From Escherichia phage p000v: 64,000 nt of DNA. The stretch lies in sequence record NC_055781.1; one strand, written 5' to 3'. The notes under the pieces are model-generated. The model was not told the origin of the DNA. It searched no databases and worked only from the letters and a program-made list of their open reading frames with translations. Positions within the stretch are counted from its first letter, which is position 1. Every line of letters begins with the position of its first letter. Both the position numbers and the translations under genes were made by a program. Below, one piece after another: positions 1,045 through 30,105 of the stretch.

Positions 1045-3014
1045 TGTGAAATAGGCTCCAAATCTATAGTTAAGTACTGAGGACGTAAGTCATTTTCAAA
1101 TACGATTAAAGAACCATCCTTTGTAAAAATAATATCATCTGCAGGGTCGGAATAAAGTTCAATTGTTTGAACTTCAAAACGGTCTGAAGTGAGGTCAATT
1201 TTAGCAATGTTCCAATAAATCGAATCGGCAGGATAATTCACTTCACCAATTGAATAGTATTTGTTTCGTCCGTCAGTAACAGCAAGTTTATTAAAATCAT
1301 TACCTGTATAAGGTTGTATATTTTCGTTTTCAACAACATCGCCGTCTGCAAATGGGCCAATAATAACTTGACCTATGCCACGGTCATTACGGTCAGAAGA
1401 TACTATGCGAACACCGTATTTAATAGTTTCGTTTGCATTTTCTGGATTAGGTCTGTGCGAATCAAACGAGAATATATTAGATTCCATCGATCTATCTTTA
1501 ATCTGATTATTGTATTTAATACCGGCCTCAGGCGTTTTATAAAAGTTCTGTACTTCGCGAACCATTTGAATAGTAGCCGAAGAACCAATAATAGAAATAT
1601 CTGCATCATCGACATAAGTTAGCATTTTAGATTTTGCAAACGATGAGTTAAAAATTTCTACATCTTCAATATAATATCGGTCAATTTTATTAATAATCTG
1701 TCCTTCAAGGTATTGCTCTGATTCTTGAAGTTTATTCAACGCGTATGTAACTTTGATATTCATTTTGATAAACAAATAATCAGGCGAAATAACAACAGGT
1801 GTAATAGTCCCTAAGTTATAATCATTTAAATAGTTTTTGATGTCGTCGCGTTGAACAGAAGTCAAATACAATCCAGATTTAGGCTTAGCAGCAATATATG
1901 CGTACCCGGGTTTAGACGAATCTGTGAATGTTTGAACTGCTTGAATAATAGAACCAAACCGCTCAGAGACGAATGTGTCATAGTCGGAAGCGGTTACACA
2001 ACGTTGTTGAGTTTCACGTTTAATTGTGCCTAATTCTCGAATACGTTCAATATCTTCAGGGTCACCGCCACCATCAGCCCCGACAAAGTCTGGGTTATTG
2101 CTAGGGTTCTCGTTAATATCGATTACAGTGATATTAGCTAATGTATCAGCATAAGAAAATCCTACAGCACCGTTAGCATCTGCGCCATTAGTAGAAATAT
2201 ACTCAATTACGATTTTAGAACCCTGAACAGGCTTAAGGCCACCAATATAGTTGGATGTTAACGCGCCTTCTGATGTGTTAATAGAGATTTCGCCTTCACC
2301 AAAATAAAATTCGGTGTTCCCATCAACAGTTTCACGCATATAATAGATTGTTGACGTAGAACCAGCGTGAACCATCGACTTACGAGTCCAGTTAATCCAT
2401 TCTGCTCCGTCAACATACAACTTAACCAAATTACGGTCAATATTCTTATCACGAATAATGATAGGTTTTAATTTATCAAATGTTAATTCAGTGCGAACAA
2501 TACGACCCTGAGCTAATCGAAGACGTGGGAAATATTGATTATTTTTGTCTTTAACTACAATGACATCTTCAGTAGAAACAAAGTTATACGGGTTAACAGA
2601 AGTATCTTTAGCATATGCTAAGAAACGAGTGCCACGTGGAATGGTGATATAGTTTCTATTTAATGCATCTGTACATGTGAGCATAATTTCTGTTTGTGCC
2701 GCTGATTTAGATGAAGGCAGATATCCGTTATCTTGAGCCGCTTGTACAACAGAGCTACGCAAGTTTGCAGTGCGCATAAAACTTTCATACACTGCGCTAT
2801 TACTAAACTGTTGGATGTAAAGAGTGTTATATGCTAAAAGGTCGCACAATACGTTTAAGCGTGAACCTTCAAAATCATAATCAAGAAATTCATTCTGTCC
2901 ATGGAGCCATTCGATAATGTTTTGTTTGATTTCGGCAAATGTGCCCCCGATAAAAATCTCGGGAATAGCATTCGCTGTTCGGGTTAATTGATAATTTACA
3001 GGAGTGTTTGCCAT
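1041..3014 (-). CDS. 6: baseplate wedge protein gp6
   Basis: 657 aa; start set at MANTPVNYQLTRTANAIPE (ATG 3014, AGGA SD upstream) rather than longer track ORF; similarity to T4 gp6 along whole length. Confidence 0.92.
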   Translation of the reverse strand: MANTPVNYQLTRTANAIPEIFIGGTFAEIKQNIIEWLHGQNEFLDYDFEGSRLNVLCDLLAYNTLYIQQFSNSAVYESFMRTANLRSSVVQAAQDNGYLPSSKSAAQTEIMLTCTDALNRNYITIPRGTRFLAYAKDTSVNPYNFVSTEDVIVVKDKNNQYFPRLRLAQGRIVRTELTFDKLKPIIIRDKNIDRNLVKLYVDGAEWINWTRKSMVHAGSTSTIYYMRETVDGNTEFYFGEGEISINTSEGALTSNYIGGLKPVQGSKIVIEYISTNGADANGAVGFSYADTLANITVIDINENPSNNPDFVGADGGGDPEDIERIRELGTIKRETQQRCVTASDYDTFVSERFGSIIQAVQTFTDSSKPGYAYIAAKPKSGLYLTSVQRDDIKNYLNDYNLGTITPVVISPDYLFIKMNIKVTYALNKLQESEQYLEGQIINKIDRYYIEDVEIFNSSFAKSKMLTYVDDADISIIGSSATIQMVREVQNFYKTPEAGIKYNNQIKDRSMESNIFSFDSHRPNPENANETIKYGVRIVSSDRNDRGIGQVIIGPFADGDVVENENIQPYTGNDFNKLAVTDGRNKYYSIGEVNYPADSIYWNIAKIDLTSDRFEVQTIELYSDPADDIIFTKDGSLIVFENDLRPQYLTIDLEPISQ

Positions 3015-3022
3015 TTTAATTC

Positions 3023-3316
3023 CTATTTGATAAAGACTTTTGACGAGGCCTGAGAAACAGTATCCCCGCATGAAATTGGGTCAGCCATTTGAACGGCCTT
3101 TTTACCGGTGACGTATACTTTAGATGTACGAGGTTCAGTAACACCTCCATGAGTCTCGTATGGTTTTTTAATTTCTGTATGAGGTGTTATTTGGTCTCCT
3201 GCTACAAGAACAGGAATACCGCCGGTGAACACTTTAGATTGGGAAGCATTTATTACAGTAGGAGGCCATGCTTCATGACCTGTTGTAACGCACTTGTCGT
3301 AACTTAAGCCAGACAT
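3023..3316 (-). CDS. 5.4: PAAR-repeat spike-tip protein gp5.4
   Basis: 97 aa from [19 protein letters not shown]; matches T4 gp5.4 as recalled; track ORF N-terminal extension rejected. Confidence 0.85.
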
Positions 3317-3318
3317 TT

Positions 3319-3834
3319 TTATGGCCTCGCATAAACATAGTTTCGTAATTGTTGAGCCCATTTGCTCCAATTTCCTACTATAGTTTTTGTATAAACCTTA
3401 GTAAGAGTTTTTTGTACTGGAGCCGGTGGAGGTTCTGTACCAGAGTCACTTCTAGAGCCGCCTGATGAACTTTCTTCTTGGTAGTTATAAATCATTTCAA
3501 CCGTATAACTAAACACTTTACGAAGATTCTGAGGAGCTCTCCACAAATATAACTGTGTGGATTCATCTTTTGGTAAATCATCCCATGAAGATGCAGTTTT
3601 AAAATCATCATTTAATCGATATTTCAATGCATCCGAAGAAAAGCTAAACACACTTTCATATGTTCCATATAAATGATTACCATCAACAGTAATGCCTTGT
3701 GTCGGTTCATAATCTATTATATTTATTGACACTAAAGTTTCGGACGTTTCTAACTGTGGAGTAAAAAGGACGTCAATAGACGCCCCTTCCATGTCTTCTC
3801 CTAAGTCGGTATTTAAAGGAAGTATTTGTGCCAT
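3319..3834 (-). CDS. conserved protein between genes 5 and 5.4 (gp5.1-like)
   Basis: 171-aa ORF tightly packed between gp5 and gp5.4 on same strand; no motif recognised. Confidence 0.6.
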
Positions 3835-3837
3835 ATA

Positions 3838-5571
3838 TTACCCAATATCAATACGAGATCCGTCAACAGTGTATTGTCCTGAAGCTACTGAGCTCATTGT
3901 AGACATCGTTTCTGCCCAATCCCCGGCAACAGTCATATCAACATTACCATTAACAGTCCATTTAACGTTTCCGTTGACGGTGTAATCATGATTCCCTTCG
4001 ACCTGAGTTTTAGCATCACCTTTAACAAGAATATCTGCATTTCCGTCAACAACTATTTTGATATTACCCTTAACGTAAAGAGTTCCATCGCCTTCAACAG
4101 TTTTAGTTTGGTTACCACGAATAAAGATTGTGTCATTGCCGTCTATTTGATGGAGGCGATCTGCCATGTTATAATATATTTCATTAGCACCAACGTTAAC
4201 AAGCTTATCACCAGAAATCAAGAAGTTCCCATCGCCATTAGTGATGTCAAAAAGGTCTTCTACAGTTTTACGAGTACGACGCCCGGATGGAGAAACTTCC
4301 TCATATGACCCTGTTGGATGAACTAAGCGATAACGTTCATTACCTGGAGTGTCATCAAATTCTTGGATATGACCACTTTCTGTTTCCATAGCATGAACAT
4401 ATGGATACTCACCACGATAACTTGATTCCGGTTCTTTAAAAAGGATGCGTGAATCTAATGGAACAGGAGGACCGGCCGGGTCTTCTGAATCGGTATTTCT
4501 AGTAACTAAATCGGCACCAACTCCTGGTGAAGGTGGTGTTTTAACAGGAACACCGTACGATTCCATGTTACCAGTTAAAATAATTGTTGTTACGCGTGAA
4601 GCACGTCCTTTAGTCTGTTGGAACCATAATGAATCACGCCCGGATTTGTATGCAGTTTTCCAATCACCTGTGGCCATTGCTTTAAGCATAGTATTGAATT
4701 TTGCTACGCCACCAACGCCCATTTGGAAGCACATGTTTTCTAATGCCATTTGACGAGACCTGTTCATTTTAGCATAAACAGGACCTACTTTGGAATTAGA
4801 ACGAATGTCTTTCTGCATCTTAGCAAGGTCTTTCTCAAATAACGCTGTTGCTTCTTCTAATGTAATAGTTCCCGGATTTCCTGTTACTTCACGCCCTACT
4901 TGATCGGATAACAATTTATTAATTCGAGACATATCTCGGGTCTTTTCCATTACGATAAGGTGTCCAATACCTACTGTAGGATATCCGAGATGGTCCCAAT
5001 ACACTTTATCACGAAGTCCTTCGTCACGACGTAACATTTCCGTTATTGTAAAATTAGGGTCATCATCTTCTGGAATATTTGCTAAATCTGTATCGTCTGG
5101 GTTTATACCATAATCCAAGTTGTTATCTTGAATTACGTTAGAGTTTGAATAATAACCGGCTTCACCACCTTGGTTTAATACGTTAGTATCATTACCTAAA
5201 CGTCGTGGATATTGGCCTGTCGGGTCTGAAAAACCTTCAAGTCTATTAGGCTTTTCACGTACGATTCCGCCGTATGTACCAAGTACAATCCCGTTTGTTT
5301 TCCATTTGTCTAAGAAATGACCATATACTCGAGTTCCTTCAACAGGACCTGTAACAGAACCACCAATACCTGACATTGATGCGGACGTAATAGGTTGAAT
5401 AACAGTCATCCATGGAAGTTTTTCTGTAGGAATACCTTGCACATCACCTTGTGCTCTCTGTGCTGGATGAAGACCAACGACTCGAACTCGAACTCGCCCT
5501 TGTTTTAATGGGTCCATTCTGTCCTCGACAACACCCACGAACCAATTAAGGCTACTGCTAATCATTTCCAT
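3838..5571 (-). CDS. 5: baseplate hub / cell-puncturing protein gp5 with lysozyme domain
   Basis: 577 aa; T4-lysozyme-like segment (GIGHL...WFQQTKGRASRVTTIILTG) and C-terminal beta-helix repeats (VxGNxxxTV). Confidence 0.93.
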   Translation of the reverse strand: MEMISSSLNWFVGVVEDRMDPLKQGRVRVRVVGLHPAQRAQGDVQGIPTEKLPWMTVIQPITSASMSGIGGSVTGPVEGTRVYGHFLDKWKTNGIVLGTYGGIVREKPNRLEGFSDPTGQYPRRLGNDTNVLNQGGEAGYYSNSNVIQDNNLDYGINPDDTDLANIPEDDDPNFTITEMLRRDEGLRDKVYWDHLGYPTVGIGHLIVMEKTRDMSRINKLLSDQVGREVTGNPGTITLEEATALFEKDLAKMQKDIRSNSKVGPVYAKMNRSRQMALENMCFQMGVGGVAKFNTMLKAMATGDWKTAYKSGRDSLWFQQTKGRASRVTTIILTGNMESYGVPVKTPPSPGVGADLVTRNTDSEDPAGPPVPLDSRILFKEPESSYRGEYPYVHAMETESGHIQEFDDTPGNERYRLVHPTGSYEEVSPSGRRTRKTVEDLFDITNGDGNFLISGDKLVNVGANEIYYNMADRLHQIDGNDTIFIRGNQTKTVEGDGTLYVKGNIKIVVDGNADILVKGDAKTQVEGNHDYTVNGNVKWTVNGNVDMTVAGDWAETMSTMSSVASGQYTVDGSRIDIG

Positions 5572-6658: not shown

Positions 6659-7309
6659 ATGTATACTGTATATAAAATAACTAACATCGTAAATAATAAA
6701 ATTTATATAGGTGTTCATAAAACTAATAACCCGGATGATTCTTATAAAGGAACAGGTAAAATTATCTTAAAAGCCCATGCTAAATACGGATTAGATAATT
6801 TTGTAAAAGAAGTATTATATGTGTATGATACCGGTGACGAATTACTAAATGAAGAAATGGCTTTCCAAAAGGAAGCAGAATTAGTTGATCAATCTTTTGT
6901 GGATAGAGAAGATACATATAATATAGACCTAGGAGGAAAGGGAGGACGAGGCCGTTCTATTGATGTGCGAAAAAGAATAGGCGATTCATCCAGAGGTAGA
7001 AAATTAGGTCCTATTTCCGAAGAATCTAAAAAGAAAATGAGTTTAGCTAAGAAGGGTAAGAAATTATCCGAAGAGCATAAAGCTAAAATAGGTAAAGCAG
7101 GCCGAGGCAGGATAATGCCTAAAGAGATTAGAGACAAAATAAAAAATACTCTTACGGGACGAAATAGAACTCCTGAAGAAAAGGAAAACATGAGATTAGG
7201 ATACTTAAATACTCCTAATAAGATATGCCAATACTGCGGTATAGAATGTAAACCTGCGCCTTATAAACGTTGGCATGGTGATAATTGTAAAATGAGGAAA
7301 GTTGAATGA
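6659..7309 (+). CDS. GIY-YIG homing endonuclease (Seg-like)
   Basis: N-terminal [23 protein letters not shown] motif; basic C-terminal DNA-binding region; inserted between genes 4 and 2 with ATGA overlap onto gene 2. Confidence 0.85.
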
Positions 7310-10368: not shown

Positions 10369-10680
10369 ATGAAAACGTATCAAGAGTTTATCGCAGAAGC
10401 TACTAAAGCCGATAAAAATTTTATTATTAACACCACCGGTCCGTTAGATGATGAATACGCTAATGCTATTATTAAGTCAATTTCTAATCAAGGCGTTGAA
10501 GTAACAAATTTCGAATATAAGAAAAATGATACTTATATGGTAATTAGTATCAAAAAAGGTTCAAAGGCTAAAATTAAATCTGCATTTGGTGTTATGCGAG
10601 TCGACCAAATCGATAACCACGATTTTTCACAAACAGGGGTCAAACGCCAGAATACTATTTCATCTAAAGGCATAAAATAG
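10369..10680 (+). CDS. internal protein with capsid targeting sequence (IPI-locus protein)
   Basis: Starts MKTYQEFIAEA, the T4 internal-protein capsid-targeting leader; located next to 57B where T4 has ipI. Confidence 0.8.
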   Translation: MKTYQEFIAEATKADKNFIINTTGPLDDEYANAIIKSISNQGVEVTNFEYKKNDTYMVISIKKGSKAKIKSAFGVMRVDQIDNHDFSQTGVKRQNTISSKGIK

Positions 10681-10718
10681 TTTACATGCTGATAGGACTA
10701 TGTTATAGTAGTCCTATC
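10680..10718 (+). promoter_or_regulatory. early-type promoter with 10-bp inverted repeat GATAGGACTA/TAGTCCTATC around -10 (PeSL-like cassette)
   Basis: GTTTAC, 18-bp spacer, TATAGT; perfect inverted repeat flanks the -10. Confidence 0.6.
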
Positions 10719-15501: not shown

Positions 15502-16095
15502 ATGAACACACTGAAGAAACTTGTTGAATTCATCCGCACTAAACTGGGTACTGCTATGGCTAAAAATCTGACTGTAGAAGAACAGTATAACGCAGCTGCA
15601 GATAAGTTGATTACCCAAATCAAAGAACTAAAAACGGCTTCTGTTAAATCTATTAACGAAGAAAAACGTATTCGCGAACTTGTTAATGAAAAGAACAAGC
15701 AAGCCGCTTCTAAGGAACGTGAAATTCGTAAGCTCCTGGCTGAAGGACAAGATGTTACCATGCATGCTAAGCTTGGTCTTCTGTATCGTCGAACTGCCGA
15801 ACAACTTAATACAAAAGCTGACGGTTATGCCGCTATGCGAATTGAAATTGCTCGTAAGGTGGTTGAACTTGATGATGCTCGTCAGAACCTGGCAATCAAA
15901 CTCGAATACATTCGTGAAACTCGAGCAGCCAATGCCCTTGGTATCTCTACGGCTGATGATGTGATTGAAATTGCTGCACTGACTAAGGTTGATATCGAAG
16001 ACACTCTGACTCGTGTCGAAACATTCAATGGCACTCCAGCCGGTGTCGAAACCACTTCTGCTGATGTACAAGAATATATTAACTCTTTGAAATAA
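15502..16095 (+). CDS. coiled-coil protein, possible PspA/IM30-like
   Basis: 197 aa, start MNTLKKL with AAAGG SD; long amphipathic heptad-rich helices; resemblance to PspA is architectural only. Confidence 0.55.
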
Positions 16096-16103
16096 AATAA
16101 TAC

Positions 16104-16125
16104 GGAGGACTCCGGTCCTCCTTTT
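16104..16125 (+). terminator. intrinsic terminator
   Basis: GGAGGAC-UCCG-GUCCUCC hairpin followed by TTTT. Confidence 0.75.
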
Positions 16126-16144: not shown

Positions 16145-16747
16145 ATGCGAAACCAAAATAATGATATTGACTCAATGTTCGAAGAGTTCCGAGATAAGGT
16201 AAATCCACCTACGTCTTTAGTTGATTCATTACGATATGTTGCAACTGGGCGTAAATGGTACTGGTCGTCTTCTTATGAGACCACCGAGAAAACAGCTAGC
16301 CATAGCAGAAAATCTTTATTGGCCCCGGGTATTATGATTCATGATATCGGAGCTATTGCTAAACTAGTTGCAGACCATGATATTAGATTCACTGATTTCG
16401 TTGCTCCTACGTGGTCTGTTTGTTGTTTAAACACTGAATGGGAATATATCAGCGAACGCTCTGAAGATTATTATGGTTTTAGAGATAAGCTTCTGAGGTC
16501 TAATATGTTTTATATCGATACAGAAGTTCTAGTCGATAATAAAAAATATTACTTTACGTTAATCATCGATTCTGAAACTATGTATGAAGGCAAGCCTTTG
16601 CTTAAAAGAGTTGATGCTTTAAGTGCTATTGATGCGCTTTATGAAACTATGGTTGTTAGTCCTAATTTCACTAACAATTTAATCCTTGAGCAATTTATTA
16701 TGGAATGTAGAGAATATGTCAAAGCCAACCCTATACATGCCAAGTAA
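16145..16747 (+). CDS. hypothetical protein
   Basis: Start at ATG 16145 with AAGGAG SD; 200 aa. Confidence 0.6.
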   Translation: MRNQNNDIDSMFEEFRDKVNPPTSLVDSLRYVATGRKWYWSSSYETTEKTASHSRKSLLAPGIMIHDIGAIAKLVADHDIRFTDFVAPTWSVCCLNTEWEYISERSEDYYGFRDKLLRSNMFYIDTEVLVDNKKYYFTLIIDSETMYEGKPLLKRVDALSAIDALYETMVVSPNFTNNLILEQFIMECREYVKANPIHAK

Positions 16748-17108
16748 GCCCTGGGCGTATGAATACAAGCGTAAATTAATCCCAAATGAAGTACTATTTG
16801 GCCCTATTTTAGCTTTAGCATTTTTAATCTTTATGATTATAGGAGCTGTTTTAGATTCTAGTGAAGTTATATCGTCTGATGCAGCATTTTCATTAATGTT
16901 CGTCGCACCACTTATTATACCGTTTTTATTAATGCCTATTAACTGGATGGGATATTGGTACCAAGGACGTCATCACAGAGCCCGATTAAGAGAATGGAAA
17001 GTTCAGTGCGCAAAAGCCCAAGCTCAGTATGATGAAGCTGTTAAAAAGTATGAATATGAAGAAGCTATGGAATTCGTTAAGGAAATAAGATGCAAAAGCC
17101 TTAACTGA
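16716..17108 (+). CDS. small membrane protein with C-terminal EFVKEIRCK-type tail
   Basis: Two hydrophobic helices; overlaps previous gene end; start uncertain (16716 or 16737). Confidence 0.5.
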   Translation: MSKPTLYMPSKPWAYEYKRKLIPNEVLFGPILALAFLIFMIIGAVLDSSEVISSDAAFSLMFVAPLIIPFLLMPINWMGYWYQGRHHRARLREWKVQCAKAQAQYDEAVKKYEYEEAMEFVKEIRCKSLN

Positions 17109-17117
17109 ATTTATGCT

Positions 17118-17147
17118 GTTTACGCTTCTCAAATGATTAGTTATAAT
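17118..17147 (+). promoter_or_regulatory. early-type promoter (GTTTAC / TATAAT)
   Basis: 18-bp spacer; upstream of tandem paralog triplet. Confidence 0.55.
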
Positions 17148-17206
17148 GAACTCCTAGCTAAACGTGAAAATGAAACAATCGAAAACTTTATTAAGGAATG
17201 TAGAAA

Positions 17207-17512
17207 ATGAGTAAGATTATTGAAATTAAAGTACCAGAGTTTAATGATGCCAAATCCGCTTCAGATGCAATTTATAAACTTCTGAATCAAGCTGAACGTA
17301 TCGAAGAAGAAGCAACAAAGATCGCAGACCAATACGCTGTATCGTTTTCTGTAGGTGATTATGGTAGCGGTCGTACTTATTATCCTAAGGGTGAAATCGT
17401 ATCCCAGTGGATGAAAAATGAAATTGAAAATAATGGTGGCGACGTTAAGCGTGAAGGTAATGGTTACGTTATTACTGAAGGTGCTTGGGTTTCGTCTTCT
17501 GCGTTGTGCTAA
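17207..17512 (+). CDS. small protein, paralog 1 of tandem family with C-terminal GWVSSSxxC motif
   Basis: Ends GAWVSSSALC; first of three tandem ORFs with related tails. Confidence 0.65.
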   Translation: MSKIIEIKVPEFNDAKSASDAIYKLLNQAERIEEEATKIADQYAVSFSVGDYGSGRTYYPKGEIVSQWMKNEIENNGGDVKREGNGYVITEGAWVSSSALC

Positions 17513-17521
17513 GGAATCATT

Positions 17522-17794
17522 ATGTCTAAAGAACAAACCGAACTGGCTGAAGCCGTAGCAAAAATCTATGCAGCTATTGAGGCTGCCAAAGAAATTGCTA
17601 ATAAACAAAACACAACATTCGACTTGTATCCAGCTTATGGCATGGGTGGAACCTATCATTCACCAGGACATCTTAAAGCCGATCTTGAACGTTGTACAAA
17701 AAACGGCTATGCTGAATGGGCTGACGTTTACCAATACGACTACAACTTGAGCCTTGAAGATGGCGGTTGGGTTGCATCTTCTCACACTTGTTAA
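17522..17794 (+). CDS. small protein, paralog 2 (C-terminal GGWVASSHTC)
   Basis: 90 aa; shared C-terminal motif and SD context. Confidence 0.65.
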   Translation: MSKEQTELAEAVAKIYAAIEAAKEIANKQNTTFDLYPAYGMGGTYHSPGHLKADLERCTKNGYAEWADVYQYDYNLSLEDGGWVASSHTC

Positions 17795-17803
17795 GGAAAT
17801 CAT

Positions 17804-18001
17804 ATGTCTCGTGAATTAGATTGTGCTGTACGTACAGCAGTAGCTGCCCTAGAAAACCTGTTCCAGATTGCAACCGAAGAGCGTGAAGAAGTTACATTGT
17901 GGATTGAAGATAACGCAGGTCTGAATCTCCAGGACGCAATCTCGTTATCAAATAATAGTATTACTGTTCAAGGCTGGGTATCATCTAGTTATTCTTGCTA
18001 A
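17804..18001 (+). CDS. small protein, paralog 3 (C-terminal QGWVSSSYSC)
   Basis: 65 aa; shared C-terminal motif. Confidence 0.6.
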   Translation: MSRELDCAVRTAVAALENLFQIATEEREEVTLWIEDNAGLNLQDAISLSNNSITVQGWVSSSYSC

Positions 18002-18005
18002 AACA

Positions 18006-18043
18006 GTTTACAACAAGATAGGGCTATGTTATAGTAGTCCTAT
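18006..18043 (+). promoter_or_regulatory. early-type promoter with inverted repeat GATAGGGCTA/TAGTCCTATC (PeSL-like)
   Basis: GTTTAC, TATAGT; near-identical to cassettes at 10680 and 19298. Confidence 0.6.
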
Positions 18044-18063
18044 CAAATTAAATGGAGTCTACA

Positions 18064-18303
18064 ATGATTTATTATGAAAGTATCGGAACCGAAGTAGTTG
18101 CTAAAACTATTACTCGTGAAAAGTTTGCAAAGATATTCGATATGCGTTATAAAAAATCTGAACACAAAGGCATCCGATTCGAAGATGCGCACTGTACAAT
18201 TTGCCCTTATAATGAAGACATAAACGGTACAATCGTTCCATTGGTAGAGGCTTCACATGATGACCTCTGGGATGAATATAATATCGCATGTCGCGAAATT
18301 TAA
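18064..18303 (+). CDS. hypothetical protein
   Basis: Start set at MIYYESIG (GGAG SD 6 nt upstream); 79 aa. Confidence 0.55.
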   Translation: MIYYESIGTEVVAKTITREKFAKIFDMRYKKSEHKGIRFEDAHCTICPYNEDINGTIVPLVEASHDDLWDEYNIACREI

Positions 18304-18328
18304 GTAATCTAAATTCGAGGAAATTATT

Positions 18329-19285
18329 ATGATGTTAGTTATTGGTTCTCGTGCACTTCACTATCACGGCCTTATTGATTCTAGCGCTATCAAAAATAGT
18401 GATTGGGACTTTATTGCGGACCAAGGTTCTTGGAATGTATTCAAAAATCAAATGATGGGCGTATATGTTCACCAAGATAACCCTGATGTCCAAGTTTTCA
18501 AATGCTTCCATAATGGACGCGAAACTCATTTTGAAGCATACATTGTTCCGGCAATCACTAATGTCCGTGAATTAGTCGGTGAACTCACTCCTGAAGATTT
18601 CACGTCTTCTTATGACCTTTTAAAATACGCCAAGAAAAATTTGACTAAAGACCGTTTGAACGGGTTTTACTGGGCAACTCCTGAGATGTGTCTTGCAATT
18701 AAGATGTCTCATCGTTTCAAGAAAAATAATCCATTCTTTTTAAAGACTATGAACCATATTCAGTATCTTCGTGGTAAAGGTGTTACACTGAACGATGAAC
18801 TTACTGAAATTATGCTGAAACGCCAGAAAGAAACCTTGAATTATGCTCACCCGGTTCTTGACACTTCTAAAAGCGCATTCTTTAAAGATGACATCTACAC
18901 ATACGATCATGATACTATTCACGAAGCCATTGCACTAACAGACCGTCCAGCGTATACATTTTATATGAAAGATGGTTCTGAAGTCATGACCTCACGCGAG
19001 AAGTTCGAATCATTACCGGAAATGGTCAAATTGGCCGGCGTATACGAAGAATCATGTGTACTAGCATTAGAACGTTCTCAGATTCCTAATAACTTTGAAA
19101 TCCATCCACGTGATAGTTTTATGATAGCTCTTGAAAAGGTCTGTACTTCAATCACGTCAGGCTGGTTCCGTGAGTATGCCTGGGAGAACTATGGCAAAGT
19201 AGTAAGTATGTATCAAAGCTTAGGACATGACGATTATGTCAAACGTTTCAAACAAAATTTCCATATGGTAAAACCTTTCAAATAA
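18329..19285 (+). CDS. hypothetical protein (318 aa)
   Basis: Long ORF with GAGGA SD; no confident motif. Confidence 0.65.
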   Translation: MMLVIGSRALHYHGLIDSSAIKNSDWDFIADQGSWNVFKNQMMGVYVHQDNPDVQVFKCFHNGRETHFEAYIVPAITNVRELVGELTPEDFTSSYDLLKYAKKNLTKDRLNGFYWATPEMCLAIKMSHRFKKNNPFFLKTMNHIQYLRGKGVTLNDELTEIMLKRQKETLNYAHPVLDTSKSAFFKDDIYTYDHDTIHEAIALTDRPAYTFYMKDGSEVMTSREKFESLPEMVKLAGVYEESCVLALERSQIPNNFEIHPRDSFMIALEKVCTSITSGWFREYAWENYGKVVSMYQSLGHDDYVKRFKQNFHMVKPFK

Positions 19286-19297
19286 CTTCACAAAACT

Positions 19298-19334
19298 GTT
19301 TACAACAAGATAGGACTATGTTATAGTAGTCCTA
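19298..19334 (+). promoter_or_regulatory. early-type promoter with inverted repeat GATAGGACTA/TAGTCCTAT (PeSL-like)
   Basis: GTTTAC, TATAGT; same cassette family. Confidence 0.6.
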
Positions 19335-19355
19335 TTAAAACACGAGGAGAATATT

Positions 19356-19661
19356 ATGAAATTAGGCGAAACCAACCGAATTGGTCTTTTAACAATATTT
19401 GCATCACCTTTTTACGCAGCTCTTTCTGTTGCAGTATTACAAAAGGCTTACGATATGGATGGTGTTCCTGGTTGTATATTCTTATCACCATTTTTGTTAT
19501 TCGTTGGAGCACTGCTATTATACGCCACGACTAGTTTCGACCATAATGTCTGGGTTAATTATAAATGTAAATTGTCTGAAGAAGAACACGCAGAAGCTCG
19601 TAAAAAAGCTATTGAATCTACCAATCTAGAAAATTTCATTAAAGAATGTCGAGGAAAATAA
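19356..19661 (+). CDS. small membrane protein with C-terminal ENFIKECRGK tail
   Basis: Two hydrophobic helices; GAGGAG SD. Confidence 0.6.
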   Translation: MKLGETNRIGLLTIFASPFYAALSVAVLQKAYDMDGVPGCIFLSPFLLFVGALLLYATTSFDHNVWVNYKCKLSEEEHAEARKKAIESTNLENFIKECRGK

Positions 19662-19662
19662 T

Positions 19663-20349
19663 ATGAATAGTTCTAAAGTGTTTAATAGTCAAGCTCGTGC
19701 AGTAGGTGGTTTCGCTGGCCGTATCAGTAATGATAAAATTAAAAATGAGCCTATGTTCTTCAACTGCGACCTGAAGTTTGCTTTTGATAACGGCGGTCCT
19801 ATCACTCGTTCTTTCATCATGAATCTGCCTGATGACTGGAACACTAATGAAGTAGTATTCGATTCACGTGTTCATATGCTTATGCCTGGCTGGTATCCTG
19901 CTATTCCTGGATACCACCATGACGATGTTCCTCGCCCTGATATTCCAGTCGGCCAACACTTTATTACTGCAGGACAACCTGACTATGATAACCCTCGTTA
20001 CCATTCTGAACATATTCTTGGTCTTGTTAACGCTGACGTGTGTCCTACTCATTTTGCAACAGGAACTGCAGAGTTCAGTCAGATTCCTGATGGCGAACTT
20101 ATCTATCGCCAGTGGCACAAAGAAGTCCTCGAAAAAATCGAAAAAGGCGAACTAGAGAAATGGGAAGCTCCAGACCGTACTCTTCTTCAGTTTGATTGGC
20201 AAACATGGCACACTGGTTCTCGTGCAATTAGTAATGGATGGCGTTGGTTCGGGCGTGTATCTCGTAATACAGACCGAGTTAAAAAGATTACCAATGAAAT
20301 TCGTGTCAACGCTCAAGTTTATCTAGAATTCCCTATGGAAGGCTGGTAA
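19663..20349 (+). CDS. hypothetical protein (228 aa)
   Basis: ORF immediately following previous stop; Trp/His-rich; no motif recognised. Confidence 0.6.
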   Translation: MNSSKVFNSQARAVGGFAGRISNDKIKNEPMFFNCDLKFAFDNGGPITRSFIMNLPDDWNTNEVVFDSRVHMLMPGWYPAIPGYHHDDVPRPDIPVGQHFITAGQPDYDNPRYHSEHILGLVNADVCPTHFATGTAEFSQIPDGELIYRQWHKEVLEKIEKGELEKWEAPDRTLLQFDWQTWHTGSRAISNGWRWFGRVSRNTDRVKKITNEIRVNAQVYLEFPMEGW

Positions 20350-20840
20350 TGATTAACAAAACATATTGGTCTAATATTGACGACGGCAATGAAGGTATTT
20401 CGTACTATTCAGTGGATTGGACAGGATGTCCATCCTACTTAGTGAAACGTATTTGCCAAGAATTTAAAATCGACCAGCCAGCAGGTATTATCGTGAACAG
20501 ATACATTAATGGATATCAACCTATCGATGAAGTAATACGAACAACTCAAGCTGATCTTGAAAAGTTTTTCAATAAGTGCCAATGGATAACAGGATGGATT
20601 ATATTTGTACCGTCGGTATGGTTTTTTAGTACTAAGGTGAGTTCTTTCGGTTTTGTTGATATTATTGCTATCTTATTAGCATCTACTATCGTAAGTATAA
20701 TTGGTGGTATAATTGGTGGAGGTACTATAGGCATCATTATTAATCTTGTTAAAAGTAGTTTACAGGAACGTAAAGACAAGATAAAGGCCAAGAATAACGA
20801 AGTTGAACGTTTTATTACCGAATGCAGGAATTTGAGATGA
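20349..20840 (+). CDS. membrane protein with Gly/Ile-rich segment and C-terminal ERFITECRNLR tail
   Basis: Hydrophobic core IIGGIIGGGTIGIII; overlaps previous stop. Confidence 0.6.
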   Translation: MINKTYWSNIDDGNEGISYYSVDWTGCPSYLVKRICQEFKIDQPAGIIVNRYINGYQPIDEVIRTTQADLEKFFNKCQWITGWIIFVPSVWFFSTKVSSFGFVDIIAILLASTIVSIIGGIIGGGTIGIIINLVKSSLQERKDKIKAKNNEVERFITECRNLR

Positions 20841-21073
20841 GTATAGCAATTTACATTAAATCAGAATCATGCGATAGTTATCTGTACACGTATGATAAAG
20901 ATGTGTCAGAAGAAAAAATCAAAGACGATCTTAATATGGACCTTGATATGTTCTGTCCTATTGCAGATTACAAACTTGCGGTCTCTAATAGTGAAAGTCC
21001 ATCTAAAGAAACGCGTATTGAAGAATTTATGTCCGAATTAATGGCCAAATCATGGGACCGAGATGATGAGTAA
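20837..21073 (+). CDS. hypothetical acidic protein
   Basis: Start at ATG 20837 overlapping upstream stop (ATGA); 78 aa. Confidence 0.5.
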   Translation: MSIAIYIKSESCDSYLYTYDKDVSEEKIKDDLNMDLDMFCPIADYKLAVSNSESPSKETRIEEFMSELMAKSWDRDDE

Positions 21074-21521
21074 GAAAAATAAAGTGAAAGAACTATCAGC
21101 CGGTATTATCTTCATGACAAAAGATAAAGAATTATTCATGGGACGTGTAACTGGTTCTCGTCCTAAAGGTTCTTTAGCTCATCGGTGGGATATTCCTAAA
21201 GGACGTGTCGAGCCCGGTGAATCGCCTATTGAAGCTGCTATTCGTGAATGCGAAGAAGAAACTGGGTTTACACAATATGACCCTGCCTTCCTGAAAGACC
21301 TAGGTGAACATCATTACTCAGACAATAAGAATATTCATCTGTTCCTATATACCATCCCTGTAGAGCACGAGCAATTCAGAAACAGTGTTTGTAATTCCTA
21401 TCATACATTCCAAGACGGACGACAGATTCCTGAATTTGATGCATTCGCTTTAATTAAACCTTCTCAATGGGAATATGTGATGGGCAAATCATTATATAAG
21501 GTGCTCACTACCATCCTATAA
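21063..21521 (+). CDS. nudE: Nudix hydrolase NudE
   Basis: Nudix box GRVEPGESPIEAAIRECEEETG; located just upstream of e as T4 nudE (e.1). Confidence 0.88.
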   Translation: MMSKKNKVKELSAGIIFMTKDKELFMGRVTGSRPKGSLAHRWDIPKGRVEPGESPIEAAIRECEEETGFTQYDPAFLKDLGEHHYSDNKNIHLFLYTIPVEHEQFRNSVCNSYHTFQDGRQIPEFDAFALIKPSQWEYVMGKSLYKVLTTIL

Positions 21522-21529
21522 GTAATAAA

Positions 21530-21553
21530 TACCTCCTATAAACGTGGGAGGTA
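21530..21553 (+). promoter_or_regulatory. RBS-sequestering hairpin of lysozyme gene with late-promoter-like AATAAATA just upstream
   Basis: Stem TACCTCC/GGAGGTA pairs anti-SD with SD of gene e; AATAAATA at 21524-21531 would start late transcripts inside the hairpin. Confidence 0.5.
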
Positions 21554-21555
21554 TT

Positions 21556-22044
21556 ATGAATATATTTGAAATGCTTCGTAATGACGAAGGTCTTAGACTG
21601 ACTTTATACAAAGACACCGAAGGCTTTTGGACGATTGGCATAGGCCATTTGGTAACAAAGAACCCGTCTTTAGCCGTAGCTAAAGCTGAACTTGACAGAA
21701 TGATCGGTCGTAAATGCAACGGCACAATTACCCTTGATGAGGCTGAAAAGCTATTTAATGAAGACGTTGATAAAGCCGTTCGTGGAATCTTGGGTAATGC
21801 TAAACTTAAACCAGTGTATGATTCTTTAGACGCGGTTCGTCGATGTGCATTAGTCAATATGGTCTTCCAAATGGGTGTAGCAGGCGTCGCAGGTTTTACT
21901 AATTCTCTTCGTATGCTTCAACAGAAACGTTGGGATGAAGCGGCAGTAAATCTAGCCCAATCTAAATGGTATCGTCAGACACCTAATCGCGCGAAACGCG
22001 TAATCTCAACATTTAAAACAGGAACTTGGAAAGCGTATATATGA
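21556..22044 (+). CDS. e: endolysin (T4 lysozyme E)
   Basis: [32 protein letters not shown]...; near-colinear with T4 lysozyme; start ATG 21556 with GGGAGG SD. Confidence 0.95.
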
Positions 22045-22380: not shown

Positions 22381-22794
22381 ATGACTCGTATCAATTTAAC
22401 ACTTGTTTCTGAACTGACCGACCAACATCTTATGGCTGAGTATCGTGAATTACCACGCGTATTTGGTGCAGTCCGTAAACATGTTCAAAATGGTAAACGT
22501 GTAAAGGATTTTAAAATCTCTCCAACATTTATCTTAGGCACAGGTCACGTAACATTCTTTTACGACAAACTTGAATTTTTACGTTTACGTCAAATCGAGC
22601 TAATCGTGGAATGTTTAAAACGCGGTTTCAAAATCAAGGACACGACAGTCCAGGATATTTCCGACATTCCTGTAGAATTTCGTAATAATTATGTCCCGTC
22701 CGAAGCGTCCATTGCGATAAGTCAAGCACGCTTAGATGAAAAAATTGCTCAACGTCCGACTTGGTACAAATACTATGGTAAATCAATTTACTAA
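22381..22794 (+). CDS. denV: endonuclease V (pyrimidine dimer DNA glycosylase)
   Basis: [34 protein letters not shown]...; near-colinear with T4 endonuclease V. Confidence 0.95.
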
Positions 22795-29860: not shown

Positions 29861-30067
29861 ATGCTTTACGATTATACTGGAAAATCTGAAGACGGTGTAC
29901 TTGAACTTTTACCTGAAAGCGCTGAAGATGATGATACGGTGGTGATGTTTTGTAAAAATGGTCCTGGGGATAAGGGATGGATTTATCTTCGTCAAGAAAA
30001 TGATCTAATTGTTTTGGACCCAAAACAAGTTGAAGAACTTTATCAACATTTAAAACATAATCGGTAG
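29861..30067 (+). CDS. hypothetical acidic protein
   Basis: Start at MLYDYTGK; 68 aa. Confidence 0.5.
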   Translation: MLYDYTGKSEDGVLELLPESAEDDDTVVMFCKNGPGDKGWIYLRQENDLIVLDPKQVEELYQHLKHNR

Positions 30068-30105
30068 TTTACATCTTGGTAGGATTATGTTATAGTAGTC
30101 CTACC
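30067..30105 (+). promoter_or_regulatory. early-type promoter with inverted repeat GGTAGGATTA/TAGTCCTACC (PeSL-like)
   Basis: GTTTAC, TATAGT; same cassette family. Confidence 0.6.

Follow-up and report, generated by a model that had tools for sequence, protein, structure and literature searches.

The stretch of DNA analysed here, 64,000 nucleotides (nt) of Escherichia phage p000v (NC_055781.1; "the window"), contains the Mosigvirus version of a gene cluster of T4-like phages, which in phage T4 has the order e.5-e.4-e.3-(insert)-e.2-nudE-e. Neighbouring genes of this cluster encode proteins that end in, or close to, the same short peptide. We consider it likely that these genes represent a tandem family of small membrane proteins together with the soluble protein e.5, which have the C-terminal peptide in common, and that one member of the family has been reduced to a deletion stump. 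The set of tail-bearing genes is a gene-family finding and not a new kind of genetic element.

Occurrence of the tail motif

The octapeptide pattern E.F[IV].EC[RK] is found four times in the six reading frames of the window, compared to 0.005 matches expected from mononucleotide shuffles of the window. Each of the four matches is in frame on the plus strand, and a stop codon follows 1-11 codons later. For the shorter pattern F[IV].[ED]C[RK], four matches in the six frames stand against 0.18 in the shuffles. The six frames of the complete T4 genome contain the shorter pattern three times, namely in e.5, in e.3 and in the e.2 tail just upstream of nudE, and the fourth T4 copy is a variant, FVKESR, which is located in e.4; the T4 tails read EKFVKECR, MKFVKESR, KEFVIDCR and NNFITECR. 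The scans of the window and of T4 show that the motif is real, far beyond chance and exclusive to the e-cluster. The window has a G+C content of 37%, and short AT-rich repeats are common, and an earlier note on this DNA had named chance similarity as the finding that would refute a shared element. This explanation can practically be dismissed, as the motif clearly exceeds the shuffles, all copies lie on one strand, in frame and at the C-termini of neighbouring genes, and the motif is kept in four genera as well as in metagenomic relatives. The tails are a genuinely shared element.

The open reading frames (ORFs) and tails are located exactly where the earlier note had put them: the tail at 17133-17210 ends in ..ENFIKECRK, ORF 19356-19661, which is referred to here as p19, in ..ENFIKECRGK and the e.2 homologue at 20349-20840 in ..ERFITECRNLR, in each case directly followed by the stop codon. 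An E-x-F tail had been ascribed to three small membrane proteins; it is present in the ORFs ending at 19661 and 20840, but the ORF ending at 17108 (e.4; ..AMEFVKEIRCKSLN before the stop) only has the degenerate version M-E-F-V-K-E-I-R. One copy had been missed, EQFIMECR at 16688-16711 in e.5, which is separated by 4 nt from the start codon that follows. As described earlier, stop codons overlap or abut the next start: ATGA is found at 17207 and 20837, where the stop of e.2 overlaps the next ATG, and a gap of 1 nt at 19662 separates the p19 stop from the ATG at 19663. In addition, the e.3 start codon at 17089 falls within the e.4 tail. ORF 18064-18303, which ends in ..YNIACREI, does not count as a sixth copy, since the end of its homologues of the Dhaka and Gapriver type reads ..YVAEI, without the motif.

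The e.5 homologue is a soluble protein, in which hydropathy analysis found no transmembrane (TM) segment. Its ORF reads 11 codons past the motif and overlaps the e.4 start by 32 nt. The protein shows 46% identity to T4-type e.5 in tblastn searches, and a close relative is on record as PF26876. Across four genera, e.5 has 24 invariant columns, eight of which are in the tail. Searches with the e.5 alignment led to Dhaka- and Gapriver-type proteins, whose BLAST-detectable similarity to the window e.5 is restricted to the tail; a mid-protein match in hhalign suggests that they are probably true, fast-evolving e.5 orthologues. Queries with e.5 and with p19, the latter against a database of 5.8 billion proteins, only found close relatives.

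In e.4, the degenerate motif FVKEIR (17073-17090) has an isoleucine in place of the cysteine, which follows one residue later (AMEFVKEIRC). The Arg codon of this motif is overlapped by the e.3 start codon, and the e.4 ORF continues for 5 codons. The protein has two TM segments, a central loop free of Lys and Arg and a basic C-terminal tail; a locus search with the single e.4 query retrieved near-identical loci only. p19 is specific for Mosigviruses, and a gene resembling it adjoins an e.4-like gene in the metagenomic contig described below. The e.2 protein matches phrog_2203 (E=1.5e-55, residues 1-161), its phmmer matches extend over residues 1-160, and its relatives on record carry the Pfam family PF26896 Phage_T4_Y06M.

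Compared to the full-length e.2 of phage HY01, e.2 of the T4 reference genome (NC_000866) lacks 1 nt in an A-run and has gained 1 nt around 80 nt further on. As a consequence of this -1/+1 frameshift pair, the annotated T4 gene stops early (region 2950-3480, minus strand, versus HY01 3990-4520), and the end of T4 e.2, including ..NNFITECRKLK and its stop codon, is left unannotated in a 161-nt 'gap' before nudE. The frameshifted T4 reference e.2 may be either a pseudogene or an old sequencing error.

Depth of conservation

Proteins e.5, e.4, e.3 and e.2 end in the motif in Tequatrovirus (T4, HY01), Mosigvirus (the window, Escherichia phage 55) and Gaprivervirus (TH54). In Dhakavirus (IME08 and relatives), e.4 is absent, and e.5, e.3 and e.2 have motif ends. 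Outside the tail, the identity of the tail-bearing proteins drops to 21-47% across genera. An exhaustive phmmer search with e.2 against 1.84 billion representatives found 13 clusters, and the ten distant homologues that were retrieved (23-32% identity) all end in [FW]-I-x-x-C-R plus 1-4 residues. The alignment of 13 e.2 sequences has nine invariant columns, three of which correspond to I156, C159 and R160. Based on these distant e.2 ends, the core of the motif can be written as hydrophobic-x-x-[FW]-[IV]-x-x-C-R; the glutamate before the cysteine is frequent, but not essential.

A metagenomic T4-like contig (L029; Logan SRR8048112, 56-1915) encodes four consecutive motif-bearing membrane proteins, followed by nudE. 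The tails are ..NFVKECRGQ in the p19-like, ..FIREVRNAKTR in the e.4-like, ..FIDDCKNWR in the e.3-like and ..FIKMCRNS in the e.2 protein, each followed by the stop codon. This contig carries the most complete array of tail motifs seen, and its e.5 slot is held by a member of the family with two TM segments. Since this two-TM member lies directly upstream of the e.4-like gene, where T4 has e.5, the tail of e.5 probably goes back to a fusion of e.5 with the stump of such a member.

Family relationships and topology

According to hydropathy and charge predictions, e.4, e.3, p19 and the C-terminal half of e.2 share the same plan, i.e. two TM segments connected by a short, acidic loop free of Lys and Arg, and the two-TM members have a cytoplasmic tail of 32-55 residues. 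Since the N- and C-terminal segments are basic, an N-in/C-in topology is expected. The AlphaFold2 model of e.2 (12-sequence alignment, pLDDT 73.7, pTM 0.37), which was used for secondary structure only, contains helices at residues 65-96 and 102-161, and it predicts that the second TM segment and the entire tail form one continuous helix (residues 102-161).

Comparisons of profiles by hhalign align e.4 and e.3 over 117 columns (82%), e.3 and p19 over 50 columns (87%) and e.2 and p19 over 62 columns (80%), and e.5 matches the other families over its last 9-15 residues only. The N-terminus M-x-K-P-x-L is common to e.4 and e.3 of both T4 and the window. In the metagenomic contig, the adjacent e.4-like and e.3-like proteins are 34% identical over 125 amino acids (aa) (E=4e-19), and both begin with MRKP.K.DY.F. 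Judged from these alignments, e.4 and e.3 are certainly diverged tandem paralogues. For p19 and the C-terminal half of e.2, membership of this family is probable: residues 19-99 of p19 weakly match the e.2 family phrog_2203 (E=0.0011), and a single BLASTP comparison, which bears on the weaker family links (e.2/ORF 19356), gave E=3e-6. The tail behaves as a module, as it is found on unrelated protein bodies, namely on the soluble e.5, on proteins consisting of two TM segments only and on e.2 with its N-terminal domain and two TM segments.

Conservation of the peptide rather than the DNA

The earlier note had also claimed that conservation extends to the nucleotide level. This was not borne out when expected identities were calculated by resampling synonymous codons with the codon usage of the window while the peptides were held fixed: for ten out of ten pairs of window copies, the nucleotide identity of the motif is that expected from peptide and codon usage. 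The motifs of the e.3 remnant and p19, for instance, are identical at 20 of 24 nt, compared to 20.2 +/- 1.5 expected, and all four differences are synonymous. The high identity reported between 17133-17210 and 19620-19661 does exist and is far above random (20/24 in the motif, 22/33 overall), but it is not an additional DNA signal.

Across copies and genera, arginine is encoded by AGA, AGG, CGA, CGT or CGC, cysteine by TGT or TGC, isoleucine by ATT, ATC or ATA and phenylalanine by TTT or TTC. Among residues invariant between genera, more than one codon is used at 7 of 15 motif columns and at 52 of 72 columns outside the motif, a modest and non-significant difference, which is due to strongly preferred codons such as GAA and TTT. 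Folding of the five junction RNAs revealed no shared or unusually stable structure, and four of them have z-scores of -0.7 to +1.6; the hairpin at the e.4/e.3 junction (z = -1.9) arises from the deletion allele. Taken together, the codon patterns argue that the motif is maintained by selection on the peptide, with synonymous sites being free.

Gene junctions and recombination

Because the genes are packed stop-to-start, the Shine-Dalgarno sequence of the downstream gene is located in the motif codons or just after them (Table 1). All five motif Arg codons of the window are AGA, AGG or CGA, whereas CGT accounts for 58% of the Arg codons in long ORFs and CGT, CGC and CGG together for 70% genome-wide. 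Similarly, lysine at the x position is encoded by AAG in seven of eight gene-by-genus copies, which stem from four genomes and are not independent, versus 25% genome usage. This overlay of the Shine-Dalgarno sequence on synonymous choice is the only nucleotide-level signal. Inspection of the motif by eye for a MotA box, a late promoter or RegA/RegB sites revealed no TATAAATA, TGCTT box or conserved GGAG.

It could be argued that the motif itself is a side effect of the ribosome-binding-site constraint, in which case purine-rich gene ends would force the pairs K-E, R-K and R-N and thereby produce convergent tails. The codon preferences for Arg and Lys and the position of Shine-Dalgarno sequences within the motif codons AAG-GAA, CGA-GGA and AGG-AAT are in line with this idea. 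We nevertheless regard it as quite unlikely, since the Shine-Dalgarno sequence cannot account for the invariant aromatic residue, Ile/Val and Cys, and its position varies, within the motif or outside it, although the peptide does not change. Furthermore, copies of Gapriver- and Dhakaviruses use CGT or CGC for arginine and still keep E-C-R, and none of the other tightly packed gene pairs in T4 or the window has this tail.

The junctions could also constitute a mobile or recombinogenic module at the nucleotide level, consisting of a gene end and a ribosome-binding site, with the similarity of the peptides as a by-product. In this case, short stretches of homologous DNA at the gene boundaries would allow genes to be shuffled, inserted or precisely deleted. 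A shuffled module of this kind had been suggested in the earlier note, and it receives weak support from the motif codons that double as Shine-Dalgarno sequences and from the loss of e.4 in Dhakaviruses. In Gaprivervirus TH54 (1800-2260), a near-identical 17-nt start region, TAA[A/G]GAGGTTC[AA/GT]AATG, precedes both e.4 and e.3. Dhakavirus IME08 (6930-7040) and its relatives contain a single copy of this repeat, and e.5 is joined to e.3; e.4 was removed in IME08 by a precise start-to-start deletion between similar start regions, AARGAGGTTCRWAATG, with the crossover inside the imperfect repeat seen in TH54. Dhakaviruses have two e.3 alleles (MERPSL.. and MHKPSK..) behind the same left junction. 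Moreover, the genera differ in the gene content of this cluster at two places, the e.3 stop and the e.2 start, and the tail has outlasted deletions in the window e.3 remnant and in the T4 e.2 tail. However, nucleotide identity between copies is no higher than the peptides predict, and the Arg, Cys, Ile and Phe codons vary freely. In addition, the repeat used for the IME08 deletion is the Shine-Dalgarno/start region, which in e.5 lies downstream of the motif, and not the motif as such; the endpoint of the e.3 deletion in the window is not at the motif, and the motif persists in distant e.2 homologues with 23-36% identity, where DNA homology is gone. A mobile module is therefore rather unlikely.

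Relative to the following start codon, the motif ends at +4 nt in e.5 and at -1 nt in e.4, positions that are conserved in T4 and Mosigvirus. We attribute these off-terminal motifs to a duplication of the tail-to-head junction followed by drift of the stop codon. At the same time, it is only because of their position that a translational reading is still worth considering. In this reading, the nascent tail, from within the ribosomal exit tunnel, would influence pausing or termination and thereby tune reinitiation at the next gene. The distance from the end of the Arg codon to the next start is -1 to +10 nt in every copy, e.5 and e.4 included, although their ORFs run on for 5-15 codons, and in distant e.2 homologues it is +1 to +14 nt; the conservation at the peptide level also resembles that of arrest peptides. 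If this were true, the e-cluster would be a chain of peptide-tuned translational couplings. However, in a genome that is packed stop-to-start, any C-terminal motif will trivially be near the next start. Only two gene families, e.5 and e.4, discriminate between a peptide acting in the finished protein and one acting during its synthesis. Furthermore, the tail does not resemble known arrest peptides, and it forms the end of a long predicted helix, which is typical of a folded interaction surface. Regulation by the nascent peptide thus seems highly improbable.

The e.3 remnant

The 25-codon ORF had been described as a remnant in the earlier note, and this is confirmed by Escherichia phage 55, which has an intact e.3 of 119 aa at the same place (phrog_2330, E=4.5e-50); the window lacks 240 bp of this gene. 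Positions 17117-17210 align, with one mismatch, with the last 94 nt of the phage 55 gene, and the leftovers of e.3 in the window comprise 17 nt of the head, 11 nt of filler (17106-17116) and the last ~92 nt. The same deletion junction is present in phiE142, CCU7, TH12 and LF82-series phages and, since it is found in several isolates, represents an inherited natural allele. The 25-codon ORF begins at an internal methionine of e.3. No Shine-Dalgarno sequence was found before the ATG at 17133, and the ORF is therefore best regarded as a pseudogene fragment and not as a functional e.3 member.

The retained e.3 tail contains a promoter-like site (Table 1), which is found at the same place in phage 55 and reads ATTACA-17-TATAAT in T4. 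Its -10 element, TATAAT, is at the same time a Tyr-Asn codon pair of e.3, which four genera have kept. Directly 5' of the -35 element, the deletion has its right breakpoint. The stump may plausibly have survived because it supplies the next gene with a ribosome-binding site and this putative promoter.

Proposed origin and possible function of the tail

The following explanation seems likely to us. One small inner-membrane protein gave rise to e.4 and e.3 by tandem duplication and, on weaker profile evidence, apparently also to p19 and the C-terminal half of e.2. In these proteins, the second TM segment would extend as a cytoplasmic helix of 30-55 residues, which ends in hydrophobic-x-x-[FW]-[IV]-x-x-C-R plus 1-5 residues. 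In e.5, this tail of ~15 residues is attached to a soluble protein of unrelated origin, which probably received it when it fused with what was left of a family member upstream. Selection on the peptide would keep the motif while the remainder of each protein drifts to 20-45% identity. A 240-bp deletion, common to several isolates, removed most of e.3.

The conserved hydrophobic, aromatic, Ile and Cys positions are spaced i, i+3, i+4 and i+7. These residues might form one face at the tip of the cytoplasmic helix, with a reduced cysteine beside the arginine. Our best guess, reached purely by inference, is that the tail provides a common docking or oligomerisation surface, in which case the family members would bind one partner or each other. 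The members are individually dispensable: e.4 is lost in Dhakavirus, e.3 in the lineage of the window, and e.2 is frameshifted in the T4 reference. These natural single-member losses fit better with redundancy of paralogues that carry the same tail than with an obligate complex of all of them. In a more speculative variant, which is still less radical than regulation by the nascent peptide, the tails of e.5, e.4, e.3, e.2 and p19 might assemble into one helical bundle, in which a ring of cytoplasmic Cys-Arg pairs would serve as a site for sensing metal or redox state.

Several points weigh against the proposed family with a docking tail, beyond the inferential character of the docking surface itself. 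Selection on the peptide alone can explain the off-terminal motifs of e.5 and e.4 only by assuming a later loss of the stop codon. The paralogy of e.2 and p19 is weaker than that of e.4 and e.3, as the profiles are thin (Neff ~2) and much of the score derives from the motif and TM composition. The AlphaFold2 model of e.5 was too poor for use (pLDDT 45.7). Scans with Pfam, NCBIfam and PADLOC yielded no informative family and no link to defence or anti-defence, PF26896 and PF26876 being name-only families, and a literature search for the motif strings and the e.3, e.4 and e.5 genes found no mention of the motif.

Databases file e.2, e.3, e.4 and e.5 as separate families, and the shared tail is not recorded. 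A single cytoplasmic tail peptide links these four separately filed T4 genes and one Mosigvirus-specific gene, and thereby offers a concrete experimental handle on five genes of unknown function. They are early accessory genes, and the hyperplastic region in which they lie is of a kind that often holds anti-host functions. The natural isolates further illustrate how a gene array erodes, with a start-to-start deletion of e.4 and an e.3 stump that keeps the expression signals of the next gene.

The locus and neighbouring features

The locus was mapped based on the annotation of phage 55 and T4, translations and PHROG assignments, and all mapped genes are located on the plus strand (Table 1). In megablast searches, the whole of region 16.1-21.1 kb matched Mosigviruses such as Escherichia phages CCU7, Mizar and 55 and Shigella phage Shf125875 with 96-97% identity. 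The gene order e.2 (20349), 78-aa ORF, nudE (21063) and e (21553) is likewise found in T4, HY01, IME08 and metagenomic contigs.

Table 1. Features of the e-cluster region in the window.
Feature	Position	Strand	Remarks
e.6	15502-16095	+	
e.5	16145-16747	+	200-aa soluble protein; motif EQFIMECR 16688-16711; phrog_2607, E=1.5e-95, residues 1-200
e.4	16716-17108	+	130 aa, two TM segments; phrog_2604, E=1.3e-63, residues 1-130
Broken e.3	17089-17210	+	
e.3 head remnant	17089-17103	+	ATG CAA AAG CCT TAA (M-Q-K-P-stop)
Promoter-like site	17119-17147	+	TTTACG-17 nt-TATAAT; 10/12 consensus matches; within retained e.3 tail
e.3 tail ORF, last 25 codons	17133-17210	+	motif ENFIKECR 17181-17204; TGA overlaps ATG 17207
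Three small paralogues	17207-18001	+	
Promoter-hairpin repeat	18000-18067	+	
Two genes	18064-19285	+	
Second promoter-hairpin repeat	19292-19359	+	
p19 (name used here)	19356-19661	+	101 aa, two TM segments; motif ENFIKECR 19629-19652; phrog_9798
One gene	19663-20349	+	
Full-length e.2	20349-20840	+	163 aa; small N-domain, two TM segments, helical tail; motif ERFITECR 20805-20828
78-aa ORF	20837-21073	+	
nudE	21063-21521	+	
Lysozyme e	21553-22044	+	
denV	22381-22794	+	
Junction e.4 -> e.3			Shine-Dalgarno AAGGA from Lys-Glu codons (AAG-GAA)
Junction e.3 -> next gene			Shine-Dalgarno AAGGA from Lys-Glu codons (AAG-GAA)
Junction p19 -> next gene			Shine-Dalgarno GAGGA from Arg-Gly codons (CGA-GGA)
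Junction e.2 -> next gene			Shine-Dalgarno AGGA from Arg-Asn codons (AGG-AAT)

Downstream of the e.3 stump, three tandem small paralogues of 101, 90 and 65 aa are encoded at 17207-17512, 17522-17794 and 17804-18001, and the first one scanned matches phrog_899. All three end in G-W-V-(S/A)-S-S-x-x-C, and a Ser-rich tail with cysteine as the terminal residue is unusual. Genes with this ending are not found in T4. The corresponding place in Dhakavirus IME08 and in Gaprivervirus TH54 holds three of them, together with two more divergent genes ending in W-(F/Y)-x-S-S-...-C. These tails are a second conserved C-terminal motif family in the same hyperplastic region, which is unrelated to F-I-x-E-C-R.

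A promoter-plus-hairpin element occurs in four copies (10680-10717, 18006-18043, 19298-19335 and 30067-30104). It consists of GTTTACA..17..TATAGT and a hairpin, ATAGGACTA..TAGTCCTAT, which overlaps the -10 hexamer. Two of the copies (18000-18067 and 19292-19359) share 82% identity across 68 nt. In phage 55, an extra 66-aa ORF (5005-5205 of its stretch) is located between the DUF7275 gene and p19, and a promoter-hairpin element lies just 3' of it (5206 of its stretch); the window lacks this ORF. The gap between e.6 and e.5 contains a perfect 7-bp GC-rich hairpin at 16104-16121, GGAGGAC TCCG GTCCTCC, followed by a T-run. The consensus scan reported this hairpin for both strands, with the T-run only on the plus copy; two GGAG motifs lie inside it.

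Among the small ORFs, 18329-19285 encodes a 318-aa protein with DUF7277 and DUF7275. The gene at 19663-20349 encodes a 228-aa protein (phrog_1843), which is highly conserved directly upstream of e.2, distant metagenomic relatives included; its relatives all end in ..VNAQVYLEFPMEGW before the stop codon.

Comparison with known systems

The closest system is phage T4 itself, whose genes e.2 to e.5 (NP_049738-NP_049741; PHROGs 2203, 2330, 2604 and 2607; UniProt-style names such as Y06M) are orthologues that likewise precede nudE and e, with order and orientation unchanged. The TM architecture, the tails and the e.5/e.4 and e.4/e.3 overlaps of the window are like those of T4. In contrast to T4, e.3 of the window is reduced to a 25-codon stump. 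The frameshift pair of the T4 reference e.2 is absent from the window, where this gene has its full length; furthermore, the window contains ~3.1 kb of extra genes between e.3 and e.2, including the paralogue 19356-19661.

Promoter-early stem-loop (PeSL) cassettes of T4-type phages are intergenic, conserved at the DNA level and consist of a sigma-70-type promoter and a stem-loop (PMC2839356; PMC4122927). They have been proposed to target recombination, thereby leading to gain and loss of whole genes (Arbiol et al. 2010, PMC2839356; Comeau et al. 2014, PMC4122927). The tail motif is likewise a short repeat at gene boundaries in a hyperplastic region, and the e.4 deletion in IME08 has the same flavour. 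Unlike PeSLs, however, all copies of the tail motif lie within coding sequence and are conserved as peptide only. In a consensus scan, none of the five copies coincides with a promoter-like site, the nearest one being located ~35 nt upstream in the e.3 remnant. The tail motif was thus rejected as a PeSL, as it is coding and has no DNA-level conservation and no shared promoter or hairpin. The promoter-hairpin repeats of the window look like the published PeSL cassettes and are a feature separate from the tail motif.

SecM and TnaC are ribosome arrest or regulatory nascent peptides. Like them, the tail is a short C-terminal peptide that is conserved at the amino-acid level and located beside a downstream start; however, it has no sequence resemblance to them, and its carriers are full-size membrane proteins and not leader peptides. 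Translationally coupled stop/start overlaps such as ATGA and TAATG are common in T4 and other compact phage genomes. The tail-bearing genes resemble such coupled pairs, since at four of the five junctions the stop codon overlaps the next start or is at most 1 nt away from it, and the Shine-Dalgarno sequence is located in the last codons of the upstream gene. What sets them apart from ordinary coupled junctions is a recurring octapeptide that is confined to this gene family.

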